DNA from: an uncultured Gammaproteobacteria bacterium
Lineage (GTDB): Bacteria; Patescibacteriota; Microgenomatia; Levybacterales; GWA1-39-11
Length of the DNA stretch: 64,000 nt
Reading direction: 5' to 3'
Assembly (NCBI GenBank): GCA_964409875.1
Contig: CAYPEN010000001.1
Coordinates: 198,637-262,636, forward strand
Position 1 is the stretch's first letter; every line of letters starts with the position of its first letter. The notes below the pieces were generated by a model. The model saw only the letters and a list, made by a program, of their open reading frames with translations, was not told the DNA's origin and did not search any database. This document shows, one piece after another, positions 3,039-17,015 of the stretch. Both the position numbers and the translations under genes were made by a program.

Positions 3039-3677
3039 ATGTATAATCATTTTATGCTCGTTTTTATCGATGATTCCGGAGATCCGGGATTTAAATTAGA
3101 AAAAGGTTCCTCAACTCACTTTGTAATATCTTGCATAATTTTTGATGACGATTTGGAAGCAGAAAAAACATCTTTAGCTATTAAAGAACTCAGAAGAAAA
3201 TTAAAAGTTAATGATCGATATGAATTTAAATTTAATAAAACTGATTTACGTTTTAAAAAAGTTTTTTTTGATACGATTTTTCCCTTCAAATTTAGAGTAA
3301 GGGCTATTACGGTTGATAAAACAATAATTCATAGCTCTCGTCTAAGAAATTACAAAGAAAATTTTTATAACTACATCATCATGCAGGTTTTGAAGCAAAG
3401 TAAAGGACATATCAAAAATGCAAGATTAAAATTCGATAAAAGAGGAGAAAAAACATTGAGAGATGAGTTAAGAGTATATTTAAGTCGTGAACTTGATAAT
3501 AGAAGAAATCATATTTTCAGCGATGTAAGATTTGTTGATTCTAGACAGAATACTTTAATTCAACTAGCCGATATGGTTGCCGGCTGTATAACGTCTTTTT
3601 CTAAAGGCAAAGATAGGATTTTCTATAAACAATTAAAGGATAACGGTAGAGTAGAGGATGTCTGGCAGTTTAAATAA
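3039..3677 (+). CDS. DUF3800 family protein
   Basis: N-terminal FIDDSGDPGF motif and ~210 aa length are characteristic of DUF3800. A start at MLVFIDD (3054) is possible. Confidence 0.6.
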   Translation: MYNHFMLVFIDDSGDPGFKLEKGSSTHFVISCIIFDDDLEAEKTSLAIKELRRKLKVNDRYEFKFNKTDLRFKKVFFDTIFPFKFRVRAITVDKTIIHSSRLRNYKENFYNYIIMQVLKQSKGHIKNARLKFDKRGEKTLRDELRVYLSRELDNRRNHIFSDVRFVDSRQNTLIQLADMVAGCITSFSKGKDRIFYKQLKDNGRVEDVWQFK

Positions 3678-5280: not shown

Positions 5281-6108
5281 ATGAAACCGTACTTCCTCGA
5301 TAATAATTTCGCACTCTATCAAGGTGATTCTTTAGAACTTATGAAGAAATTCCCGGACAACCATTTTGATATGGTTTTTGCTGATCCCCCATACAATCTC
5401 TCAAACGGTGGGTTTACAGTCCACGCAGGAAAGCGAGTAAGTGTTAATAAAGGAAAGTGGGATGAAAGTAAAGGATTTGATGAGGATTATGAATTTCATA
5501 CAAGGTGGTTAAGTGAAGTGAGGCGTGTCTTAAAACCTAATGGTACTGTGTGGGTAAGTGGAACCTATCACTCAATTTATCAATGCGGTCATGCTCTTCA
5601 AAAAGCAGGGTACCACATTTTAAATGATATTGCATGGTTCAAGCCAAATGCATCTCCTAATTTATCTGGTAGATATTTTACGGCAAGCCATGAAACTCTC
5701 ATTTGGGCGCGACGTGACAAAAAAGCAAAGCATATTTTTAATTACAAGGCTATGAAAGAAGGAAATTGGCATTTGTCTGACTTTATAAAAAAGGCTGAAA
5801 AACAAATGAGAAGCGTTTGGGCAATAGGAACTCCAAAGCCCGAAGAAAAAAAATTCGGTAAACATCCGACGCAAAAACCCCTAGCTCTTCTTGAGAGAAT
5901 CATTCTTGCCAGTACCAATAAAGACAGCGTAATTTTGGACCCATTCACAGGCAGTTCAACAACAGGTATTGCTGCAGCAAAATTGGGGCGAAAATTTATC
6001 GGAATTGACACTGAAGAAAATTACCTTAAACTATCGATAAAACGATATAAAGATTTGGATAGCATGCTTTTTAAATATGCAAATAATAACTCGGCTGCAA
6101 GCGATTGA
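5281..6108 (+). CDS. type II DNA methyltransferase, beta class (N6-adenine or N4-cytosine), DpnA-like
   Basis: Motif IV FADPPYNL lies near the N-terminus. Motif I LDPFTGSSTTGIAA lies near the C-terminus (IV..I order, i.e. beta class). Confidence 0.85.
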   Translation: MKPYFLDNNFALYQGDSLELMKKFPDNHFDMVFADPPYNLSNGGFTVHAGKRVSVNKGKWDESKGFDEDYEFHTRWLSEVRRVLKPNGTVWVSGTYHSIYQCGHALQKAGYHILNDIAWFKPNASPNLSGRYFTASHETLIWARRDKKAKHIFNYKAMKEGNWHLSDFIKKAEKQMRSVWAIGTPKPEEKKFGKHPTQKPLALLERIILASTNKDSVILDPFTGSSTTGIAAAKLGRKFIGIDTEENYLKLSIKRYKDLDSMLFKYANNNSAASD

Positions 6109-6694
6109 GAATTTAAAAAAATATATAGGACAGGATTTGCGCACACTTGCTCTCCAATTTGGAATCACCACTTACGAAACAGGAAAACAAAATAAAGGTT
6201 GGAAGGGCCTTGTCTTAGAACGGCTTGCCGGACTTGATAACAATAATGCCAAAGCTCCAAATGGACTCTCTTACGAACTTAAAAGTGTAAGTTTTTATGA
6301 AGTTAAAGGAAATCTTGTTCCAAAAGAAACAATGGCAATTACTATGGTAAACCCGAAAGAGTTATTGGAAAAGTCTTTTTTTGAAAGTCATTGCTGGTAC
6401 AAATTAAAAGCAGTTGTTTTTTGTGCTGTACGGTGGCACGGGAAAAATGCTGAAAGTGCGGAACTAATTGATGTTACAAGCCTTGATTTTCTTGAAACTG
6501 ACACATTAATTAAAGAAATAGAAAAAGACTATGAATTCATACGAAATAAATTAAGAACTCAAGGTTTTGAAGCGCTTACAGGGAAAGATGGAAAATGGAT
6601 ACAAGCCCGAACAAAAGGTGCAGGACATGGGTCGACATCACGGGCTTTTTATGCGAGAAAAGAATTAGTTAAAAAAATCTTCGAACAAACTTAG
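6077..6694 (+). CDS. MutH/Sau3AI-family restriction endonuclease (putative GATC-specific)
   Basis: From memory it aligns with MutH at several points. Examples: KGWKGLVLERLAGL vs MutH KGWIGVLLEIWLGA; ELKSV vs ELKTI; ETMAITMV vs ETTFVCV; GKWIQARTKGAG vs GEYLQIRPKAANAK; FYARKEL vs FYLKKNF. It overlaps the end of the methyltransferase gene. Confidence 0.7.
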   Translation: MQIITRLQAIENLKKYIGQDLRTLALQFGITTYETGKQNKGWKGLVLERLAGLDNNNAKAPNGLSYELKSVSFYEVKGNLVPKETMAITMVNPKELLEKSFFESHCWYKLKAVVFCAVRWHGKNAESAELIDVTSLDFLETDTLIKEIEKDYEFIRNKLRTQGFEALTGKDGKWIQARTKGAGHGSTSRAFYARKELVKKIFEQT

Positions 6695-6766: not shown

Positions 6767-6994
6767 ATGAACTTCAAAAAAGCAATTCTCACATTCCTAG
6801 TTGGAATTTTTCTCTTTAGTGCAGTTGTAACACCTGCATTTGCTAGAGTAAGAGTTAAGGGATACACGAAGAGAAATGGAACTTATGTCGCTCCTCACTA
6901 CAGGACAAATAAAAACTCCTTAAAATATGATAATTGGTCAACAAAAGGAAATATAAATCCTTACACTGGCAAAAAAGGATACAAAAATTTCTAG
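6767..6994 (+). CDS. small secreted/membrane-anchored basic protein (75 aa)
   Basis: Signal peptide (…LFSAVVTPAFA) followed by a basic Tyr/Lys-rich tail. Confidence 0.5.
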   Translation: MNFKKAILTFLVGIFLFSAVVTPAFARVRVKGYTKRNGTYVAPHYRTNKNSLKYDNWSTKGNINPYTGKKGYKNF

Positions 6995-7077: not shown

Positions 7078-7524
7078 ATGCTTCCAATGAGTAAGACGCT
7101 CAAAAAACGATTCAAATTTCCCCAGGTTTTGAGTTTTGCCATGAGAGTTATCAAAAGAATTCCTCGCGTAGCGTGGGGAACGGCTGCTGTTTTTGGAGTT
7201 TTTTGCTTGGGCATTATATTTGGGTCCATTTCCCAAAGTGGATATATCAACGAGCAAGCTTCGCAAAAGCAGGGAGAGAAGAGTGCCCAGCTGACGGATG
7301 TCCTCAACAATTATCAAGGACTCTCAAAACTTTTTTACCTGCAGCAGCAAGATATGGATATCATAACCGACACATCTCAATGGTCTACAAATCCCCAAGA
7401 ACTAACTGATGCAATATCAAGCTACAAGCAAAAGAAAAACGAAATCCTTTTCCAATGGGGAAGGCTCTACGAGCTTCGCAGAAAAGCCGGATTGCCAAGC
7501 GACCCGAATTTGAAAGCAGAATAG
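7078..7524 (+). CDS. hypothetical membrane protein
   Basis: One TM segment (AAVFGVFCLGIIFGSI) and a Q-rich region. The true start may be a downstream Met. Confidence 0.4.
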   Translation: MLPMSKTLKKRFKFPQVLSFAMRVIKRIPRVAWGTAAVFGVFCLGIIFGSISQSGYINEQASQKQGEKSAQLTDVLNNYQGLSKLFYLQQQDMDIITDTSQWSTNPQELTDAISSYKQKKNEILFQWGRLYELRRKAGLPSDPNLKAE

Positions 7525-7533
7525 GAACGCATT

Positions 7534-7737
7534 ATGGATAATTTCTTTGGAAATAAAAAACAAAAGGTAGTATGGGCGGTATATGTCGTTCTTGCTGCAA
7601 TAATCTTTATTGGAATAACGACCGACTATTCGTGTTCTGTCGCCAATAAATGCGGACAGCTGATCCCAATCCTTTTCTCCCTGACCCTAATATTTACGGT
7701 CCTATCTTTACTATTCAAATCCTCAAAAAAAAGCTAA
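7534..7737 (+). CDS. small hydrophobic membrane protein (67 aa)
   Basis: Two TM-like segments. Low confidence because of size. Confidence 0.35.
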   Translation: MDNFFGNKKQKVVWAVYVVLAAIIFIGITTDYSCSVANKCGQLIPILFSLTLIFTVLSLLFKSSKKS

Positions 7738-7797: not shown

Positions 7798-9252
7798 ATG
7801 TTCGAGCAAGCTTTTAAAAATATTGATGATGTTTTGTGGAAAGATTCTGGGGTTTCTAATGAGCTTGATTATGTAGAGCAAACTTCATGGATTCTTTTTC
7901 TAAAATATCTTGATGATTTAGAGGAGACGAAGGAAAAGGAGTCAAAACTTGCCGGAAGATCTTACAAATCAATACTTGAAGACAAATATAAATGGGATAC
8001 ATGGGCTGCGCCAAAAGACTCTAGTGGAAAAATAGATCACCGAATAGCTCTTTCTGGGGAAGATCTCACCGATTTCGTAAATTTAGAATTATTTCCATAT
8101 CTTAAAAAATTTAAGGCAGATGCTAAAAGTCCAGACTCCATTGAATATAAAATAGGTGAGATTTTTAGCGAGTTAAAAAATAAAATTCATAGCGGATATA
8201 CCCTTCGTGAAATATTAAATATCGTAGAGACCCTTCATTTCAGGTCACAAAAAGAAAAGCATGAGCTATCTCATCTATATGAATCAAAAATCAAAAACAT
8301 GGGCAATGCGGGGAGAAATGGGGGGGAGTATTACACACCGCGCCCTCTAATACGAGCTATTGTCAAAGTTGTAAATCCAAAGATAGGAGAGACGGTCTAT
8401 GACGGAGCTGTAGGATCGGCGGGATTTTTGTGTGAGGCATTTGAATACTTAAAAGAAAGCAAGCAACTTTCTACAGAAGATGTAGAAATTCTGCAGAAAA
8501 AAACATTTTATGGGAAGGAGAAAAAGTCTCTTGCTTACATAATAGGTGTAATGAACATGATTCTTCATGGAATAGAAGCTCCAAACATTAAGCACACTAA
8601 TACACTTTCAGAAAATATAATGGATTTTCAGGAAAAAGACCGTTTCAACGTAGTGCTTGCCAATCCGCCTTTTGGTGGTAAGGAACGTTCCGAAGTGCAA
8701 CAAAACTTCCCGATAAAAACAGGCGAAACCGCTTCACTCTTTTTGCAGCACTTTATTAAAATTTTGAAAGCAGGTGGCAAGGCAGGTGTAGTAATTAAAA
8801 ACACTTTTTTGAGCAATACCGACAATGCCACGGTTGCCATACGCAAAACCTTATTGGAAAACTGCAACCTGCACACCGTGTTGGATTTGCCGGGTGGCGC
8901 TTTTACGGGTGCTGGGGTAAAAACAGTCATACTGCTTTTTGAGAAAGGCAAATCGACCCAGAAGGTTTGGTATTACCAGTTGAACCCTGGCCGCAATTTA
9001 GGCAAGACCAATCCATTGAATGATAAAGACTTGGCAGAGTTTGTAGAATTACAAAAAACCTTTGCTGACAGCAAAAATTCTTGGACGGTGAATGTAAAAG
9101 ACATTGACCAAAACACTTTTGATTTGAGTGTAAAAAACCCGAATAAAAAAGAAGAAGTTACGTTACGCCAACCGAAAGATATTGTGGAAGAAATGAAAGC
9201 ATTGGACGAAGAAAATACGAAAATCATAAACTTAATTTTGGAATTGATATGA
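7798..9252 (+). CDS. hsdM: type I restriction-modification methyltransferase subunit HsdM
   Basis: Carries the VLANPPFGG catalytic motif and the AdoMet motif DGAVGSAGFL. Its stop overlaps the hsdS start (ATGA at 9249-9252). Confidence 0.9.
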   Translation: MFEQAFKNIDDVLWKDSGVSNELDYVEQTSWILFLKYLDDLEETKEKESKLAGRSYKSILEDKYKWDTWAAPKDSSGKIDHRIALSGEDLTDFVNLELFPYLKKFKADAKSPDSIEYKIGEIFSELKNKIHSGYTLREILNIVETLHFRSQKEKHELSHLYESKIKNMGNAGRNGGEYYTPRPLIRAIVKVVNPKIGETVYDGAVGSAGFLCEAFEYLKESKQLSTEDVEILQKKTFYGKEKKSLAYIIGVMNMILHGIEAPNIKHTNTLSENIMDFQEKDRFNVVLANPPFGGKERSEVQQNFPIKTGETASLFLQHFIKILKAGGKAGVVIKNTFLSNTDNATVAIRKTLLENCNLHTVLDLPGGAFTGAGVKTVILLFEKGKSTQKVWYYQLNPGRNLGKTNPLNDKDLAEFVELQKTFADSKNSWTVNVKDIDQNTFDLSVKNPNKKEEVTLRQPKDIVEEMKALDEENTKIINLILELI

Positions 9253-10367
9253 AGCAAGGTTGGGAAATAAAGAAGTTGGGTGAAGTTTCAGAAATTCTGA
9301 ATGGTGGAACACCGAAAACAAATATTGCAGAATATTGGGACGATGATATTCATTGGATTACCCCTGCTGATTTAGGAAAGTTAACTAAACCAACAGTAGC
9401 AGATACTCCAAGAAAAATTTCAAGTTTAGGCTTAGAAAAATCGTCTGCAAAATTATTTCCTGAAAATTCAGTAATACTTTCAACGAGAGCTCCAATTGGA
9501 CATTTGGCAATCAATGTAGTTCCTATGAGCACTAATCAAGGGTGTCGTGGAATTGTGCCAAGTAAAAAACTTGATACTTGGTATTTATATTACTTCCTTA
9601 AAAAGAATGTAGAGTTACTTGATAGTTTGGGAACAGGAGCAACCTTTAAAGAGCTTTCAACAAAAGCACTTTCAGGGGTTGAGATCCCCCTTCCCCCTCT
9701 CCCCGAACAACAACGCATTGTTTCTATATTAGATGAAGCCTTTGCCGCCATCACATCGGCAAAAGCAAATGTACAAAAAAACCTCAACAACGCCAAAGAA
9801 CTTTTTGAAAGCTACTTGCAGGGAGTGTTTGAGAATAAGGGTGATGGTTGGGAAGAGAAAAGATTTGATGAAGTCTGTGTTTTGCAAAGGGGATTTGACC
9901 TACCAACTCATTCAAGATTTGAAGGAGATTATCCTTTGGTAAGTTCTAATGGAATTACAGACAATATAAATCAATGGAAAGTTAAAGCGCCAGGTGTTGT
10001 TACAGGTCGTTCAGGCACAATTGGCAATGTTCATTTTATTGAGGAAGATTTTTGGCCACTCAACACAGCACTTTTCATTAAAGATTTTCACGGAAATGAT
10101 GAACGCTTTATTTATTATTTCTTAACGTCTTTTGATTTGAGTAGATATAGCTCAGGAGCAGGTGTACCGACTTTAAATAGAAATAATGTTCACAGCGTAA
10201 GAGTTTGTGTTCCAAAATCAAAAGAAGAACAACAAATCATTGTCAGTCAATTAGATGCCCTGCGAGCGGAAACACAAAAGTTGGAAGCGGTATATCAAAA
10301 GAAAATAGCTGATTTGGAAGAACTGAAAAAATCCATTTTACATAAAGCATTTTCTGGAGAATTATAA
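9249..10367 (+). CDS. hsdS: type I restriction-modification specificity subunit HsdS
   Basis: Conserved central HsdS region (…LPPLPEQQRIVSILDEAFAAI…) and C-terminal coiled-coil (…QKKIADLEELKKSILHKAFSGEL). Sits between hsdM and hsdR. Confidence 0.85.
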   Translation: MKQGWEIKKLGEVSEILNGGTPKTNIAEYWDDDIHWITPADLGKLTKPTVADTPRKISSLGLEKSSAKLFPENSVILSTRAPIGHLAINVVPMSTNQGCRGIVPSKKLDTWYLYYFLKKNVELLDSLGTGATFKELSTKALSGVEIPLPPLPEQQRIVSILDEAFAAITSAKANVQKNLNNAKELFESYLQGVFENKGDGWEEKRFDEVCVLQRGFDLPTHSRFEGDYPLVSSNGITDNINQWKVKAPGVVTGRSGTIGNVHFIEEDFWPLNTALFIKDFHGNDERFIYYFLTSFDLSRYSSGAGVPTLNRNNVHSVRVCVPKSKEEQQIIVSQLDALRAETQKLEAVYQKKIADLEELKKSILHKAFSGEL

Positions 10368-10369
10368 GG

Positions 10370-10425
10370 TTTGTATACATTCATTGACTAAATGTATACA
10401 AACTGGTATACTTTGTATACATTCA
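10370..10425 (+). promoter_or_regulatory. promoter with triple TGTATACA-palindrome operator upstream of fic/hsdR
   Basis: TTGACT (10384-10389), a 17-nt spacer, then TATACT (10407-10412). Three copies of TTTGTATACATTCA (direct, inverted, direct) overlap the -35 to +1 region. Confidence 0.45.
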
Positions 10426-10445
10426 CAAAAAGATGTAAACAAACT

Positions 10446-11585
10446 ATGGATATCAACATTGGAACACTGAAAGAACAAAAAGAGGGGTTTAAGGCTTTTA
10501 TTCCATATACATTTCCTCCCGAAAAAGGTTTTGAATTTACTCCAAGAATAATTAAAAAAGATAATGAAGCGACACGACTTTTAGGTAAGCTTGATGGTAT
10601 CACCAAGTTATTACCTGATGCTGATTTCTTCTTGCTCATGTATCTGCGCAAAGATGCTGCTTCTTCAAGTCAAATAGAGGGAACTATGGCTACCATGGTA
10701 GATGCGATTGAGGCAGAGGTAAACGTAAGCACTAATATCCCGGAGGATGTAGATGACATTTTGCATTACATACAAGCATTAAATTACGGTATAAAACGCG
10801 TTACTTCTGATGATTTTCCAATAAATCTTCGATTTGTTAGAGAACTTCACTTGAAACTTATGAAAGGCGCGCGCGCTACTCATTTTAGTGATCCTGGGGA
10901 ATTTAGAAAAAGTCAGAACTGGATTCAAGGAACAAGGCCCGACAATGCACATTTTGTGCCTCCTCCGGTTGATGAAATGCATCGTGCGCTGAATGAGTTA
11001 GAGGCCTTTATACATGCTGAAGACACAACTCCAACTGTTATTAAAGCGGGGATTATTCATTCACAGTTTGAAACGATTCATCCTTTTCTTGATGGGAATG
11101 GAAGAACAGGTAGAATGTTGCTAACATTTTATCTTTGGAAGGAAGGATATTTAGAAAAGCCAGTACTTTTCTTATCATCTTACTTTAAAAAGCATCAAAA
11201 GCTTTATTACGAGAGGCTTGAAGGATACCATGAGGGCAAAATTGATAAATGGGTGGAATTTTTTCTCGATGGAGTTATTGAGATTGCAACTGAGGCAATC
11301 GGCATAGTTGATAAGATTACTGAATTAAGAGAGCGAGATATTTTAAAAATTCAGAGACTAGGTAAAAGGGCCTCTGAAAGCGCGGCTATGATACTGCCTA
11401 AGTTATATGGGCAACCAATCGTGAATGTCTCGACAGTGCGTGACTGGACAGGATTTACTAGAGCTGGTGCGCAACAGGTTATTGACCGTTTTATCGAAAT
11501 GGGAATACTTTCTCCAAAGGATAAGGATGTGAAGTATGGACAGTCATATATCTATAATGAATATATTCAAATATTTTCAAATTAG
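10446..11585 (+). CDS. fic: Fic family protein (AMPylation/Fido domain)
   Basis: Canonical Fic motif HPFLDGNGRTGR. Start chosen at MDINIG, downstream of the promoter. It is embedded between hsdS and hsdR. Confidence 0.85.
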   Translation: MDINIGTLKEQKEGFKAFIPYTFPPEKGFEFTPRIIKKDNEATRLLGKLDGITKLLPDADFFLLMYLRKDAASSSQIEGTMATMVDAIEAEVNVSTNIPEDVDDILHYIQALNYGIKRVTSDDFPINLRFVRELHLKLMKGARATHFSDPGEFRKSQNWIQGTRPDNAHFVPPPVDEMHRALNELEAFIHAEDTTPTVIKAGIIHSQFETIHPFLDGNGRTGRMLLTFYLWKEGYLEKPVLFLSSYFKKHQKLYYERLEGYHEGKIDKWVEFFLDGVIEIATEAIGIVDKITELRERDILKIQRLGKRASESAAMILPKLYGQPIVNVSTVRDWTGFTRAGAQQVIDRFIEMGILSPKDKDVKYGQSYIYNEYIQIFSN

Positions 11586-11587
11586 CT

Positions 11588-13897
11588 ATGAATGAATCAG
11601 AGACAAGAGCAGAATATATAGATCCAAAATTAAAGGAAAGCGGTTGGGGAGAGGTAGAGGGATCAAAAGTATTGCGAGAACACAGAATTACTGATGGAAG
11701 AATTCTCGTTGGTGGAGCACGCTCGAAGCCCGAAATCGCGGATTATGTTCTCGTGTATAAAAATCAAAAACTAGCCGTCATTGAAGCAAAGCAAATAGAT
11801 CTACCAGCAACGGAAGGTGTAGCGCAGGCAAAAGCATACGCTCATAAGATGCAACTTGAATATACCTATTCCACAAACGGTAAAGAAATTTACGAGATGA
11901 ACATGAAGACAGGGAAGGAATGGTATCTTGAGCGTTTTCCTACTCCTGATGAGTTATGGAATGCTTATTACTTTGACCAAAATGACTGGAAAGAAAAGTT
12001 TGCATCAATTCCAAGCGAAGGCGAATTAGGGAGAAGATATTATCAAGAAACAGCGATTAAAAATGTGCTTGATGCTATTGCGGAAGAAAAAAATAGAGTA
12101 CTTCTTACAATGGCAACCGGAACAGGTAAAACTGCCGTAGCCTTTCAAATAGCTTGGAAACTATATCAAGCTAGATGGAATTTGCAAAGAGACGGAAATC
12201 GTAGGCCAAGAATTTTGTTTTTGGCTGATAGAAATATACTAGCCGATCAAGCATTTAATGCTTTTAGTGCGTTTTCAGAAGATGCATTAGTAAGAATAAA
12301 TCCTCTCGATATCAGGAAGAAGGGATCAGTCCCAACGAATGGAGCAGTGTTCTTTACGATATTTCAAACTTTTATGAGCGGACCTCAAAACACACCTTAT
12401 TTTGGTGAGTATCCACCTGATTTTTTTGATTTCATCATCATAGATGAATGTCATAGGGGAGGAGCAAATGATGAGGGCAACTGGAGAGGAATTTTGGAGT
12501 ACTTTTCACCCGCTGTGCAGCTTGGGCTTACAGCTACTCCGAAAAGAAAAGATAATGTCGATACTTATAGATATTTTGGAGAGCCTGTTTATACATATTC
12601 ACTAAAAGAAGGAATAGGTGATGGATTTCTGACACCATTTAAGGTTAAAAGGATTCAAACAACTCTTGATGAATACATATATACATCGGATGACGAGGTG
12701 GTAGAGGGGGAGATAGAAATGGGCAAGGTCTATACCGAGCCAGATTTTAATAGAATAATCGAGATAAAAGAGAGGGAGGCTAAAAGAGTCAAATTGATGT
12801 TAGAAAATATAAATCAAACAGAAAAAACTATAGTCTTTTGTGCCAATCAAGAGCATGCGTTAGCAGTCAGAGATCTTATAAATCAAATGAATGATGTGAA
12901 GGATCCATTTTATTGTGTAAGGGTTACTGCAAATGATGGGTTTCGAGGTGAGCAATATTTGAGAGAATTTCAGGATAACGAAAAAACTATTCCAACTATT
13001 CTAACTACTTCTCAAAAACTTTCCACTGGTGTTGATGCGAGAAATATCCGAAATATTGTTCTTATGCGACCAATTAATAATATGATTGAATTCAAACAAA
13101 TAATTGGACGGGGCACAAGGCTATTTGACGGTAAAGAATATTTTACTATTATTGATTTTGTAGATGCTTATAAAAATTTTCTTGACCCTGAATGGGACGG
13201 AGAACCTGTTGATCCTGAACCTCCCAGACCTCCTGGTCCTACACCGCTACCACCTAGGCCATGTCCGGTTTGTGGGCAAGCTCCATGTATCTGTGACAAA
13301 GTAGAACCAAAACAGAAAATTAAAATAAAACTTCGTGACGGAAAAGAGCGCGAAATTCAACACATGATTTCCACGTCTTATTGGGGAGCTGATGGTAAGC
13401 CTATGTCTTCAGAAGAATTTATTTACAATTTGTACGGAATATTACCTGACTTTTTTAAAGATGAAGAAGAATTGAGGAAAATATGGTCAAATCCAACAAC
13501 ACGAAGTAAGTTTCTCGAGCGATTTTTTGATATGGGAATTGATATTGAGCAAATCGAAAACCTTTCAAAAATTGTAAGCGGTGAGGATAGTGATTTTTAT
13601 GATGTCTTGCTATTTTTAGCCTACCATAAACCATTAATTACCCGTAAAAAACGAGTTGAAAAAAATAAAAGCGAGATTTTGGAAGGGTTAAATGAAAATG
13701 AGTCAGAATTCCTTAATTTTGTGTTGAGAAAATATGAAGATGATGGGTTTGAGGAACTATCTGAAGAAAAATTGCCAGTTCTTCTAAACTTAAAATATCA
13801 AGCTATTGCGGATGCAGAACAAAAATTGGGAGATGTAGAAAAAATAAGAAATACTTTTTTTGAATTTCAAAAAAAATTATATTCAAACATTCAATAG
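11588..13897 (+). CDS. hsdR: type I restriction enzyme R subunit HsdR
   Basis: HSDR_N-like N-terminus (…RAEYIDPKLKESGW…), Walker A MATGTGKT, and DEAD-like IIIDECHRG. The C-terminal EcoEI_R_C-like helical region is preceded by a Pro-rich linker and a CPVCGQAPCIC zinc-knuckle-like motif. Confidence 0.85.
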   Translation: MNESETRAEYIDPKLKESGWGEVEGSKVLREHRITDGRILVGGARSKPEIADYVLVYKNQKLAVIEAKQIDLPATEGVAQAKAYAHKMQLEYTYSTNGKEIYEMNMKTGKEWYLERFPTPDELWNAYYFDQNDWKEKFASIPSEGELGRRYYQETAIKNVLDAIAEEKNRVLLTMATGTGKTAVAFQIAWKLYQARWNLQRDGNRRPRILFLADRNILADQAFNAFSAFSEDALVRINPLDIRKKGSVPTNGAVFFTIFQTFMSGPQNTPYFGEYPPDFFDFIIIDECHRGGANDEGNWRGILEYFSPAVQLGLTATPKRKDNVDTYRYFGEPVYTYSLKEGIGDGFLTPFKVKRIQTTLDEYIYTSDDEVVEGEIEMGKVYTEPDFNRIIEIKEREAKRVKLMLENINQTEKTIVFCANQEHALAVRDLINQMNDVKDPFYCVRVTANDGFRGEQYLREFQDNEKTIPTILTTSQKLSTGVDARNIRNIVLMRPINNMIEFKQIIGRGTRLFDGKEYFTIIDFVDAYKNFLDPEWDGEPVDPEPPRPPGPTPLPPRPCPVCGQAPCICDKVEPKQKIKIKLRDGKEREIQHMISTSYWGADGKPMSSEEFIYNLYGILPDFFKDEEELRKIWSNPTTRSKFLERFFDMGIDIEQIENLSKIVSGEDSDFYDVLLFLAYHKPLITRKKRVEKNKSEILEGLNENESEFLNFVLRKYEDDGFEELSEEKLPVLLNLKYQAIADAEQKLGDVEKIRNTFFEFQKKLYSNIQ

Positions 13898-13971: not shown

Positions 13972-14898
13972 ATGGCGTTGTTTAGAATAAATGGGAAAAA
14001 ATTAAGCCCTGTAAAGGAAATGGGGTTTGATTCTCAATTTAAAAAAGAGAAGGAACTCCAAAATTTTACAGAAAACAATCTTCAAGAACTTTTTGGTCTT
14101 GAATATATTGCTACTGAATTTAATATCGAGACTTTTTGGCTTGACTCTCTGGCATTTGATCCTGCTATCAATTCATTTGTAATCATAGAGTACAAAAAAG
14201 TCGAAAATTTCTCGCTTATGGATCAGGGGCAAACGTATTTGAATCTTGTGTTGGATCACAAGGCTGACGTTTTGCTGGAATATATTACAAAAACAGGAAA
14301 GACAATTGATAAAAAGAGTGTCGATTGGGGACAGACCAGAGTCATGTTCATTGGTCCAAAATTTAATACCTATCAAAAGAGAGCGTTAAGTCCAAATTTA
14401 CCATTTGAATTGTGGGAAGTTGGAATTTATGAGGGGGGACTTATAGAATATGATCAGATAATTCCCGTGGGTGGAGACAAAAAAGTTGAAAAGAGAACTG
14501 TTTCTCTTTCTGGTTCTGCGAGTAAGGAAATTAAAGTATATGCAGTAGAGGATCATCTAAAAAAATCCAACCAGAAAACACAAGATCTTTTTCAGACTAT
14601 CAGAGAGGAAATTTTTTCTTTGAATAGCAAAATTCAGGAAAAACCAGTTGGGAACTACATAGGTTATAAAGTAAATTGGTATAATTTTGCCTCGATCCAT
14701 TTTTACAAAGATTGGTTAAAAATTCATGTTAGAAAGGAAAAGTTGCAAAGTGATAAGGATGGTAGACTGACAAAAATACCCTCATCATATGGATGGGGTA
14801 AAACGCCGCTTTGGTGGATGGATGTTAAAAATGAAAAGGATGTGGAGTATGTATTACCAATAATTAAGGAGTCCTATGATGCATCGCCTGATAAGTAA
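13972..14898 (+). CDS. PD-(D/E)XK-like nuclease-fold protein with uncharacterised C-terminal domain (putative)
   Basis: N-terminal …FDPAINSFVIIEYKK… fits a D…(D/E)xK restriction-endonuclease-like signature. It lies immediately downstream of hsdR on the same strand. Confidence 0.4.
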   Translation: MALFRINGKKLSPVKEMGFDSQFKKEKELQNFTENNLQELFGLEYIATEFNIETFWLDSLAFDPAINSFVIIEYKKVENFSLMDQGQTYLNLVLDHKADVLLEYITKTGKTIDKKSVDWGQTRVMFIGPKFNTYQKRALSPNLPFELWEVGIYEGGLIEYDQIIPVGGDKKVEKRTVSLSGSASKEIKVYAVEDHLKKSNQKTQDLFQTIREEIFSLNSKIQEKPVGNYIGYKVNWYNFASIHFYKDWLKIHVRKEKLQSDKDGRLTKIPSSYGWGKTPLWWMDVKNEKDVEYVLPIIKESYDASPDK

Positions 14899-14904
14899 AT
14901 AAAT

Positions 14905-15663
14905 ATGTCTCAGTACTATAATCCCATCAGAACACGGAATTTGTTTGATCCCAGCTCTTCCGAGCCGTTTCGACTGAGCCGTTCAAAAATCGACCTTTTT
15001 GTAAAGTGTCCCAGGTGCTTTTATATGGATAGGAGGTTGGGAATAGGGCAGCCGCCAGGATATCCTTTTTCTTTAAATTCTGCAGTCGATGCACTTCTCA
15101 AAAAAGAGTTTGATATGCACCGCGCAAACGGCACGCGGCATCCATTGTGTGAAAAGTATGGAATCAACGCAATTCCCTATGCTCACGAGAAAATTGATGA
15201 GTGGAGAGACTCGTTACGACGGGGAATTACTGTCCCAATTGACGGCACTTCGGTAGTTGTAACAGGAGGAGTAGATGACGTTTGGCATGAAAATGGCGAG
15301 CTTATTATCGTTGATTACAAAGCAACGTCAAAAAAAGAAGAAGTAACACTGGATGCAGAGTGGCAAGATGGGTACAAAAGGCAGATGGAAATCTATCAGT
15401 GGCTGTTCCGAAAGAATGGTTTTAACGTTTCTAAAACAGGATATTTTGTGTACTGTAATGGAGACACCGATAAAGAGGCTTTTGATGGGAAGCTGGAGTT
15501 TGAAATAAAACTAATTCCCTATGTTGGTGATGACTCATGGGTCGAGGGAAAAATTTTGGAAGCAATCGAATATCTAAAAAGTGATACCATCCCTGAGAGC
15601 GGGGCGGATTGTGACTTTTGCGCGTATAGAAAAGCCGCGGCAAGTGCAGAATCCAGGGAGTAG
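14905..15663 (+). CDS. Cas4-like / RecB-family PD-(D/E)XK nuclease with Fe-S cysteine motifs
   Basis: N-terminal CPRC. RecB motifs GGVDDVW and IIVDYKATSKK. QxxxY motif QMEIYQWLF. C-terminal CDFC, giving a 4-Cys cluster. It starts 6 nt after the upstream gene. Confidence 0.6.
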   Translation: MSQYYNPIRTRNLFDPSSSEPFRLSRSKIDLFVKCPRCFYMDRRLGIGQPPGYPFSLNSAVDALLKKEFDMHRANGTRHPLCEKYGINAIPYAHEKIDEWRDSLRRGITVPIDGTSVVVTGGVDDVWHENGELIIVDYKATSKKEEVTLDAEWQDGYKRQMEIYQWLFRKNGFNVSKTGYFVYCNGDTDKEAFDGKLEFEIKLIPYVGDDSWVEGKILEAIEYLKSDTIPESGADCDFCAYRKAAASAESRE

Positions 15664-16398: not shown

Positions 16399-16782
16399 TT
16401 ATGCAGGTTTTGTGTGGGATTTGAGCCATGAAGAAATTTCCTCCAGAGATAGATTTCGATTATCAACATTTATGGCAAACTCCACCTCTTCATCATGAGA
16501 ATTTATAAGTTGATATCCATTTATTTTGAGAAAAATTCCGGCAGAGGTAAGTGCTGTCCTTTTATTCCCATCAACAAACGGGTGGTTTTTTAGAAGAGAT
16601 TGAAGAAGAGCTGCAGCTTTGGAGAAAATATCAGGATACATTTCTTGCCCGTCATATGTAGTCTGAGGTCTAGCCACAGCCGATTCCAAAAGTCCTAAAT
16701 CTCTCAACCCATGAGAACCTCCAAATTTTTTTATCATCTGGTCATGAATAGCTAAAATTTGGTGAGGAGTAAGGTATTTCAA
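16399..16782 (-). CDS. doc: Doc (death-on-curing) toxin, Fic/Doc family
   Basis: Doc-type motif HPFVDGNKRTAL. 127 aa. Its start overlaps the upstream antitoxin stop. Confidence 0.85.
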   Translation of the reverse strand: MKYLTPHQILAIHDQMIKKFGGSHGLRDLGLLESAVARPQTTYDGQEMYPDIFSKAAALLQSLLKNHPFVDGNKRTALTSAGIFLKINGYQLINSHDEEVEFAINVDNRNLSLEEISSWLKSHTKPA

Positions 16783-17015
16783 CGGTTGGAAAGAGCTTGT
16801 AAAACATCTTTGTGCTCTTCTACAAACTCATCAACCATTTTCATGAATTTTGCGTCGACTCCTGAGTCTTTTGATGCTTGTGGCGTGATGGTGATTTTCT
16901 TGTTTTTTTCTTCCACGATAACTTTATCTCCAGGCTTGATACCTGCAGATGCAAGAACTTTTTGAGGTATGATAATCCCTTGTGAATTTCCAATTTTTAT
17001 AACTGTCTGTTCCAT
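16779..17015 (-). CDS. AbrB/MazE/SpoVT-type antitoxin (Phd-like partner of Doc)
   Basis: …VIKIGNSQGIIIPQKVLASAGIKPGDKVIV… is a swapped-hairpin AbrB/MazE fold signature. 78 aa, in an overlapping operon with doc. Confidence 0.75.
   Translation of the reverse strand: MEQTVIKIGNSQGIIIPQKVLASAGIKPGDKVIVEEKNKKITITPQASKDSGVDAKFMKMVDEFVEEHKDVLQALSNR

Follow-up and report, generated by a model that had tools for sequence, protein, structure and literature searches.

Genes and predicted promoter at the fic locus

The DNA analysed here is a stretch of 64,000 nucleotides (the window; positions 198,637 to 262,636 of contig CAYPEN010000001.1, GenBank assembly GCA_964409875.1) assigned in the GTDB lineage to the Patescibacteriota. 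Its subject is a gene for a Fic AMP-transferase that lies in a type I restriction-modification system, with hsdS before it and hsdR after it, together with the promoter and the array of repeats that precede it. Four co-directional genes make up the locus (coordinates are those of the window):

7798-9252, plus strand: hsdM, type I methyltransferase subunit (Pfam N6_Mtase, 7.3e-65, and HsdM_N)
9249-10367, plus strand: hsdS, specificity subunit (Pfam Methylase_S, 2.6e-54, in two stretches)
10446-11585, plus strand: fic, 379 amino acids, class II Fic AMP-transferase of the SoFic family (PADLOC SoFic, 1.6e-104; Pfam Fic_N and Fic)
11588-13897, plus strand: hsdR, EcoEI-like restriction/translocase subunit (Pfam ResIII, 2.4e-38; EcoEI_R_C, 9.4e-23; HSDR_N_2)

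The placement of fic inside the type I operon, given in a preliminary description of this DNA, is borne out by the Pfam assignments. By the same matches HsdM, HsdS and HsdR are all present and apparently intact, with an HsdR of 769 amino acids against 773-823 in its relatives. The spacer between hsdS and fic measures 78 bp. HsdS ends in ...KAFSGEL, and its stop codon lies 2 nt upstream of the first repeat, R1. The start of fic is the ATG at 10446, since the alignment of homologues begins there; the start of the longest reading frame, an ATG at 10392 that would give 397 amino acids, falls inside the second repeat and upstream of the −10 element and is not the true start. The same probable over-extension is seen in at least one database entry (P0003, 397 amino acids).

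The promoter and the repeats are interleaved in the spacer as follows:

10370-10380, plus strand: half-site R1, TTTGTATACAT, direct, just upstream of the −35 hexamer (repeat search; kept in 72 loci)
10384-10389, plus strand: −35 hexamer TTGACT (consensus match; TTGAC essentially invariant across loci)
10392-10402, minus strand: half-site R2, inverted (ATGTATACAAA on the plus strand), within the promoter spacer (repeat search and cross-locus alignment)
10407-10412, plus strand: −10 hexamer TATACT with TG at −15/−14 (consensus match; conserved across loci)
10412-10422, plus strand: half-site R3, TTTGTATACAT, direct, overlapping the last base of the −10 hexamer and the predicted start site (repeat search and cross-locus alignment)
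10433-10443, minus strand: half-site R4, degenerate and inverted (ATGTAAACAAA on the plus strand), ending 2 nt before the start codon (repeat search)

The hexamers are separated by 17 nt and score 10 out of 12 against the sigma70 consensus, in agreement with the near-consensus promoter proposed previously, and the predicted transcription start of fic would lie at about 10419-10420. Three repeats in direct-inverted-direct arrangement over this promoter had also been described. The repeat search recovers them: the 14-mer TTTGTATACATTCA is present exactly and in direct orientation at 10370-10383 and 10412-10425, and inverted with one mismatch at 10389-10402. It adds a fourth copy that had been overlooked, degenerate and inverted, ATGTAAACAAAC at 10433-10444. 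From centre to centre the four sites are spaced by 21, 21 and 20 bp. R1 and R2 bracket the −35 hexamer, on which their dyad falls, R2 and R3 bracket the −10 hexamer, and R3 and R4 span the predicted start and the leader. The inverted repeats overlap the −35 and −10 elements of fic itself, as in autoregulatory Fic proteins with a helix-turn-helix (HTH) of the CccR type.

The motif TGTATACA is found three times in the window, always in the hsdS-fic spacer, while 0.52 occurrences are expected and 2 of 100 shuffled sequences reach three. With up to two mismatches the 14-mer gives six matches against 0.83 expected, a number reached in none of 100 shuffles. At this threshold only weak matches at 11558, 17116 and 31298 lie beyond the spacer, so that no regulon is seen in the 64-kb window; the match at 11558, inside fic, is forced by the conserved codons for NEYIQ. 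A 12-bp palindrome, TGAATATATTCA, is located at 11559-11570 within the last fic codons, 18 nt before the start of hsdR; it is explained by the same conserved peptide and is thus probably not a regulatory site.

Conservation of the array across phyla

Relatives of the Fic protein number in the thousands, and the best 120 share 75-91% identity and come from very different phyla. A genome scan provided the best 80 of at least 570 matching loci (72-80% identity), 78 of them with usable upstream DNA. Anchoring on the promoter pattern missed nine loci: three at contig ends (L003, L015 and L039), one with a misplaced predicted start (L019), one having only R3 and R4 (L012), and four with variant hexamers that also escaped a looser pattern (L025, L050, L072 and L079), of which L050 and L072 were read by eye.

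An operator would be refuted by the absence of the repeats from homologous loci, as the preliminary description recognised. This is not what is seen: the whole array, in the order R1, TTGAC, R2, TATACT, R3, an A-rich stretch, R4 and ATG, is kept at the same spacing in 72 of the 78 loci, and these belong to Patescibacteria, Proteobacteria, Actinomycetota, Chloroflexota, Omnitrophota, Nitrospirota and Bacteroidota. Cross-locus conservation starts exactly at R1, the DNA upstream being unrelated between loci, and the information content of TTGAC is 1.9-2.0 bits at all five positions.

From the 72 loci an 11-nt half-site consensus, TTTGTWTNYAT, can be derived. In loci other than that of the window R4 is systematically TTTGTTTACAT or TTTGTATCTAT. 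In about 12 loci all the sites are TTTGTTTACAT or TTTGCTTACAT and contain no palindrome, the non-palindromic core being TGTTTACA or GCTTACA. The palindrome TGTATACA, which the preliminary description noted in each copy of the repeat, is indeed present in three of the sites of the window, but it is not the unit conserved across loci and is incidental, because those 12 or so loci carry non-palindromic sites. As read from the alignments, the conserved unit is an asymmetric 11-nt half-site repeated in alternating orientation about 21 bp apart, and inverted repeats are made by pairing of half-sites.

The genes around the array vary. HsdR is encoded downstream in 11 of 74 loci and HsdS upstream in 5 of 69, the other neighbours being housekeeping or assorted genes, and no regulator gene recurs beside the operator among the neighbours in the 80 loci, which span many phyla. 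Of all the encoded proteins, only Fic is found with it throughout. Since about 75-85% of the fic cassettes lack hsdR, the primary role of the operator would be the autoregulation of fic, and the control of hsdR is a consequence of its position in this lineage. More distant SoFic subfamilies have other repeated half-sites upstream (TATTAAYG); a plasmid collection, which holds only homologues of up to 42% identity, was used for the repeats of these subfamilies. This suggests that autoregulation through subfamily-specific operators could be general in SoFic.

The Fic protein

The product of fic is, by its profile match, a full-length member of the SoFic anti-phage family: residues 14-378 align to positions 5-359 of the 361 in the PADLOC profile PDLC03963 (E = 1.6e-104). 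The following parts were recognized:

10665-10682, plus strand: inhibitory-helix motif S74-S-Q-I-E78-G79, of the form (S/T)xxxE(G/N), intramolecular (read from the sequence; invariant in 40 homologues)
11079-11114, plus strand: catalytic Fic motif HPFLDGNGRTGR, H212-R223 (read from the sequence)
11364-11552, plus strand: C-terminal winged HTH (wHTH) domain (AlphaFold2 model of the C-terminal domain; alignment to the C-terminal domains of 7CB8 and 9VJC)
11460-11498, plus strand: recognition helix, about residues 339-351 (AlphaFold2)
11457-11459, plus strand: T338, which with A340 co-varies with the operator

The inhibitory motif is as defined in PMC9755527 and PMC12249575. The catalytic motif HPFLDGNGRTGR fits HxFx(D/E)GNGRxxR and is invariant across homologues save for T221, which is nearly so; with the Pfam Fic_N and Fic and PADLOC matches, it bears out the earlier reading of a canonical Fic protein. 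The arrangement is not that of class I FicT/FicA pairs: the list of open reading frames (ORFs) holds no FicA-like one upstream, hsdS ends 2 nt before R1, and the inhibitory motif lies within Fic itself. The C-terminal domain was modelled with a predicted local distance difference test (pLDDT) of 78-92 and comprises helices 307-322, 328-335 and 339-351 and strands 325-327, 356-361 and 365-369, the last two forming the wing. The relatives in the PDB are all Fic-wHTH proteins (7CB8, 9VJC, the SoFic entries 3EQX and 3ZCN, and 7XUX, which is probably CccR).

Covariation between Fic and the half-sites

When loci with TTTAC operators were compared with those having TATAC operators, the class-specific substitutions in Fic included two at otherwise near-invariant positions, 338 and 340, both at the N-terminus of the predicted recognition helix. 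The combinations observed were:

T338, half-site position 6 = A: 60 loci
S338, half-site position 6 = T: 9 scored loci, and in addition L050 and L072 by eye
T338 with P or Q at residue 340, half-site position 6 = T: 2 loci, the only T338 exceptions
N338 (L014), half-sites TTTGAATACAT: 1 locus

The association between residue 338 and position 6 gives a Fisher p of 7e-10, a statistic that ignores phylogeny. S338 arose at least twice, L069 being apart from the main clade in a tree built from residues 1-295 only.

Taken together, (i) the operator travels with fic, (ii) no partner gene is conserved beside it, and (iii) residue 338 co-varies with the half-sites; for these reasons the repressor is most likely Fic itself, and not a separate small regulator. 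In related proteins, CccR has been found experimentally to repress its own promoter (PMC9755527), and the same is suggested for SoFic, which binds its own upstream DNA (bioRxiv 10.64898/2026.07.09.737422). Of the operator for a dimeric repressor over fic and hsdR that had been proposed, the conserved operator-like array stands and hsdR is very probably on the same promoter, but the repressor is most likely Fic.

Probable coupling to hsdR and age of the hsdS-fic-hsdR module

The stop codon of fic and the start of hsdR are 2 nt apart; neither a terminator nor a promoter nor a Shine-Dalgarno sequence separates the two genes, and hsdR probably shares the fic promoter and is co-transcribed. An intact hsdR follows fic at 6-25 nt in ten other loci, which are scattered over the Fic tree. 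In the synteny comparison that had been suggested, the fic-hsdR order does recur, but most neighbours of fic in relatives are unrelated genes.

The preliminary description presented fic as inserted between hsdS and hsdR. If so, the insertion is not recent, since the module is old and its parts have diverged together: between pairs of loci, Fic identity and HsdR identity are correlated (Mantel r = 0.82, p = 0.0002). Moreover, seven solitary fic genes keep relics of the 5′ end of hsdR in the first 90 nt or so after fic. In two of them (L024 and L039) the HsdR N-terminus is intact at 14 of 14 residues, and in five (L079, L025, L012, L069 and L041) a decayed relic retains 6-10 of the 14, where 2 of 1580 shuffles reached 6 of 14. 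On the other side, an HsdS C-terminus (..AFxGEL followed by the stop codon) ends just before R1 in 10 loci, for a null rate of 0.0006. HsdS C-terminal remnants were also noticed in the last 60 nt or so before R1 in L002, L042 and L069. The position of fic between hsdS and hsdR is thus seen in 11 intact loci and about nine relic loci.

Because the Fic and HsdR distances correlate and solitary fic genes carry hsd relics, a long co-inheritance is favoured, and repeated independent insertion of fic within the close clade is rejected on the same two grounds. The comparisons indicate that the hsdS-fic-hsdR order is ancestral for much of the clade and that fic often outlives its hsd partners.

A model for autorepression of fic

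We propose, as the reading that is on balance probable, that fic encodes a SoFic-type toxin with a portable promoter and four half-sites, that it is autorepressed by Fic, and that hsdR is placed on the same promoter. In the model, fic would carry its own expression module, a strong promoter of the sigma70 type interleaved with the four half-sites. One Fic dimer would bind each inverted pair through its two wHTH domains, so that two dimers would fill the array. Fic bound at R1/R2, around the −35 element, and at R3/R4, over the start site and the leader, would shut off its own transcription, and in the T338 class the weakness of R4 could be deliberate. Such autorepression would keep a toxic enzyme low and buffered in any host. 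The Fic-repressed promoter would also drive transcription of hsdR, probably with translational coupling, and the occupied operator might also act as a roadblock to read-through from hsdM-hsdS. The geometry is compatible with this arrangement, as 21 bp of B-DNA measure about 71 Å, two helical turns, and the reading helices of CccR are 70 Å apart (PMC9755527).

Several points weigh against this proposal. The dimer geometry is borrowed by analogy from CccR, whose half-sites are 36 bp apart and not 21. The full-length AlphaFold2 model is poor (mean pLDDT 51, from a shallow alignment with all sequences at least 75% identical), and the C-terminal domain alone is usable. The covariation amounts to some 2-3 independent changes, beyond which shared descent confounds it, and is supportive rather than decisive. 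The promoter is a consensus match only, and hsdR may have an internal promoter of its own inside the 3′ end of fic. In addition, pure negative autoregulation would produce a burst of HsdR on entering a naive host, which is not obviously adaptive. Finally, two loci with another SoFic subfamily at the same position (L153 and L158) carry neither a promoter nor an operator for it, and therefore autoregulation is not required for the hsd-embedded state.

A likeness can be drawn with the controller (C) proteins of type II systems, dedicated regulators of about 80 amino acids that activate and then repress, delaying the nuclease. In both cases an HTH regulator lies directly upstream of the nuclease gene, is co-transcribed with it (probably so here), and has paired operators over its own promoter. 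The differences are that here the regulator is the tail of a 379-residue toxin, that only repression is suggested and that the system is type I. A delay switch of the C-protein kind was judged weak, as only repression is indicated.

Occupants of the hsdS-hsdR slot and a possible partnership

The contents of the interval between hsdS and hsdR were surveyed in 80 metagenomic relatives of this HsdR. In most of them hsdS abuts hsdR. Where the gap is filled, it holds SoFic proteins of two other subfamilies (L099/L100 and L153/L158), the three subfamilies found in the slot having 75%, 41% and 34% identity with each other, or else Schlafen/AlbA_2, AbiJ-like, IrrE/RmrA-like or DUF3800 proteins. In the third SoFic subfamily (34% identity; L153 2655-2690 and L158 2653-2690) there is no spacer, promoter or repeat, and the start overlaps the end of the upstream frame. 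Schlafen/AlbA_2 proteins with HATPase_c_4 occupy the slot at L089 2547-4004 and L142 2280-3758; one of them bears a Pfam Fic-like_C wHTH, and the same DNA-binding tail may serve different effectors in this position. A DUF3800 gene fills the gap of a related system (L156 2808-3671), and another is present in the defence island of the window at 3039-3677 on the plus strand.

Accessory defence genes are found in this slot again and again, as prrC is in EcoprrI, a type I locus with the order hsdM-hsdS-prrC-hsdR. The PrrC anticodon nuclease cleaves the anticodon of tRNA-Lys; physical association with the restriction complex keeps it masked until a phage peptide sets it free. Both loci have a latent toxin gene between hsdS and hsdR, whereas the enzyme here is a Fic AMP-transferase and not an anticodon nuclease, and hsd genes are absent around most members of this Fic clade. 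The likeness is by analogy only.

Because three SoFic subfamilies and other genes of abortive-infection type share the slot, and Fic and HsdR co-diverge, a second reading is allowed, although we consider it unlikely: Fic might work in partnership with the type I enzyme, as a backup of the PrrC kind that would at the same time determine the dose of HsdR. The wHTH of Fic would then throttle hsdR transcription and block read-through from hsdM-hsdS, and if the restriction complex were lost or inhibited during infection, the AMPylase would be unleashed or induced and would shut down translation. The placement of a Fic gene among the core genes of a type I system is noted in passing in PMC9881135, and the literature on COG3177 and on Fic with hsd genes yielded passing mentions only of Fic between type I genes.

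Other explanations of the repeats

The repeats could be imagined to act as nucleic-acid hairpins, R1:R2 being a terminator or insulator for hsdM-hsdS and R3:R4 a leader hairpin masking the start of fic. The RNA from 10360 to 10450 does fold into exactly two such hairpins (−22.9 kcal/mol, z = −4.56, none of 200 shuffles being as stable), and the R1:R2 stem is terminator-like on the minus strand. However, pairing is not what is conserved: the arms are exactly complementary in only 19 of 72 loci for R1 and R2 and in 3 of 72 for R3 and R4, arm identity within a locus is barely above that between loci, and all four arms hold one consensus instead. Furthermore, no T-run follows R2 on the plus strand, the array is conserved where no upstream transcription enters, and transcripts from the predicted promoter would begin inside R3 and could form neither hairpin. 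This explanation is very unlikely.

The repressor envisaged in the preliminary description was a separate small HTH protein, encoded by the host, that would bind TGTATACA as a dimer and control fic and hsdR. The perfect 8-bp palindrome in each of three sites here would agree with it, and three small unannotated ORFs upstream of hsdM (6767-6994, 7078-7524 and 7534-7737) might be candidates, but they gave no Pfam or PADLOC match. The loss of the palindrome in the loci with TGTTTACA or GCTTACA, the absence of a regulator gene conserved beside the operator in the 80 loci, the parallel between the half-site changes and Fic residue 338 and the lack of a further copy of the site in the 64-kb window all argue against such a protein. 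None was found or is needed, as the operator accompanies fic into unrelated contexts and co-varies with a residue of its wHTH, and we consider this possibility very unlikely.

Extremely improbable is a role of the repeats as recombination or mobility sites at the 5′ end of a mobile fic cassette, since, even though conservation begins exactly at R1 and the cassette is present in dozens of unrelated contexts, sometimes between hairpin elements of the same orientation and sometimes 10-30 nt downstream of tRNA genes (L031 5800-5889, tRNA-Ser; L050 2476-2549, tRNA-His), the tRNA 3′ flank being a typical integration site of islands, the repeats interleave precisely with invariant −35 and −10 elements and stop 2 nt short of the ATG, the 3′ end of the cassette has no repeats to match them, no recombinase accompanies it, and decay of the hsd genes around them accounts for many solitary cassettes.

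The hairpin elements are imperfect and about 50 nt long (...TTTTGGGCATTCACCCC...GCCCAAAA...), have an attC-like or REP-like look, share one orientation, and are found before and after the fic cassette as well as behind genes next to it:

L005: 4205 and 6452
L011: 3357 and 4613
L033: 63, 2889, 4497 and 5966
L040: 5104 and 6393
L058: 297, 1040 and 2315

Relation to known Fic proteins

SoFic is an established single-gene anti-phage system (S. oneidensis SO_4266/SoFic and E. coli EcSofic; entered as SoFic in PADLOC and DefenseFinder), and EcSofic is dimeric and, on over-expression, toxic (PMC12249575). The S. oneidensis protein AMPylates EF-Tu, and its dimer binds the first 100 bp in front of the gene that encodes it (bioRxiv 10.64898/2026.07.09.737422). 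The Fic protein described here resembles SoFic in the full-length hidden Markov model match, the class II N-terminal inhibitory helix, the catalytic motif and the C-terminal wHTH. It differs in that its clade shares only about 25-30% identity with SoFic proteins of solved structure, that the gene is embedded in a type I operon instead of standing alone, and that a four-half-site array can be read, whereas no operator has been mapped for SoFic. Nor is there a gene for an AS1-like antitoxin of 47 amino acids downstream (AS1 is described in PMC12249575), hsdR following after 2 nt. A small Cys-rich ORF (for example MPKEIANKTKGETYYKCTHCG...) lies right after fic in loci of the TTTAC class (L023, L029, L043, L014 and L049) and may be an AS1-like antitoxin.

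CccR, the Fic-HTH protein of Yersinia pseudotuberculosis, represses its own promoter as a dimer through inverted repeats near the −35 and −10 elements; its toxin and regulator activities are separable, and it is an effector of the type VI secretion system (T6SS) that AMPylates FtsZ (PMC9755527). Its domain order and class II inhibitory motif are those of the Fic protein studied here. The operators differ: that of CccR is a single inverted repeat with 10-bp arms, AGATAATCAT-N26-ATGATAATCT, and here there are four 11-nt half-sites of unrelated sequence phased at about 21 bp. No T6SS context was seen here, as far as the ORFs scanned near fic go, which gave no T6SS-like Pfam match.

The SoFic family and the type of regulation, which resembles that of CccR, were already known; known families are extended, and current understanding is not overturned. 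What is new is descriptive: an operator and promoter module shared across phyla, a candidate specificity residue, and evidence for an old SoFic-HsdR module. The locus and its 70-odd relatives provide a base-resolution model of the operator, four half-sites at 21-bp phasing, with T338 versus S338 as the candidate specificity residue, and a compact promoter that seems to function in many phyla. SoFic is reported to be among the most common defence genes in groundwater bacteria (PMC12259885), and how its toxicity is restrained and released is still open (PMC12249575). A SoFic clade long carried in a type I operon, directly before hsdR, makes possible crosstalk between toxin and restriction enzyme testable in a defined module.

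Neighbouring genes in the window

Other defence-related genes surround the type I system. Just upstream of it, an N6/N4 DNA methyltransferase gene (5281-6108, plus strand) is followed by one for a MutH/Sau3AI-like endonuclease (6077-6694, plus strand), probably a type II restriction-modification pair. A second Fido toxin, unrelated to the Fic protein above, is encoded 2.5 kb beyond hsdR: a Doc/Fic protein of 127 amino acids (16399-16782, minus strand) with an upstream MazE/Phd-like antitoxin (16779-17015, minus strand), a classical two-gene toxin-antitoxin pair. Directly after hsdR lies a gene for a DUF5655 protein (13972-14898, plus strand) with a full-length match to the PADLOC candidate PDC-S18, and then one for a Cas4-like PD-(D/E)XK nuclease (14905-15663, plus strand), which recurs beside fic in L046 and L048 and upstream of hsdM in L112, L122, L123 and L134.

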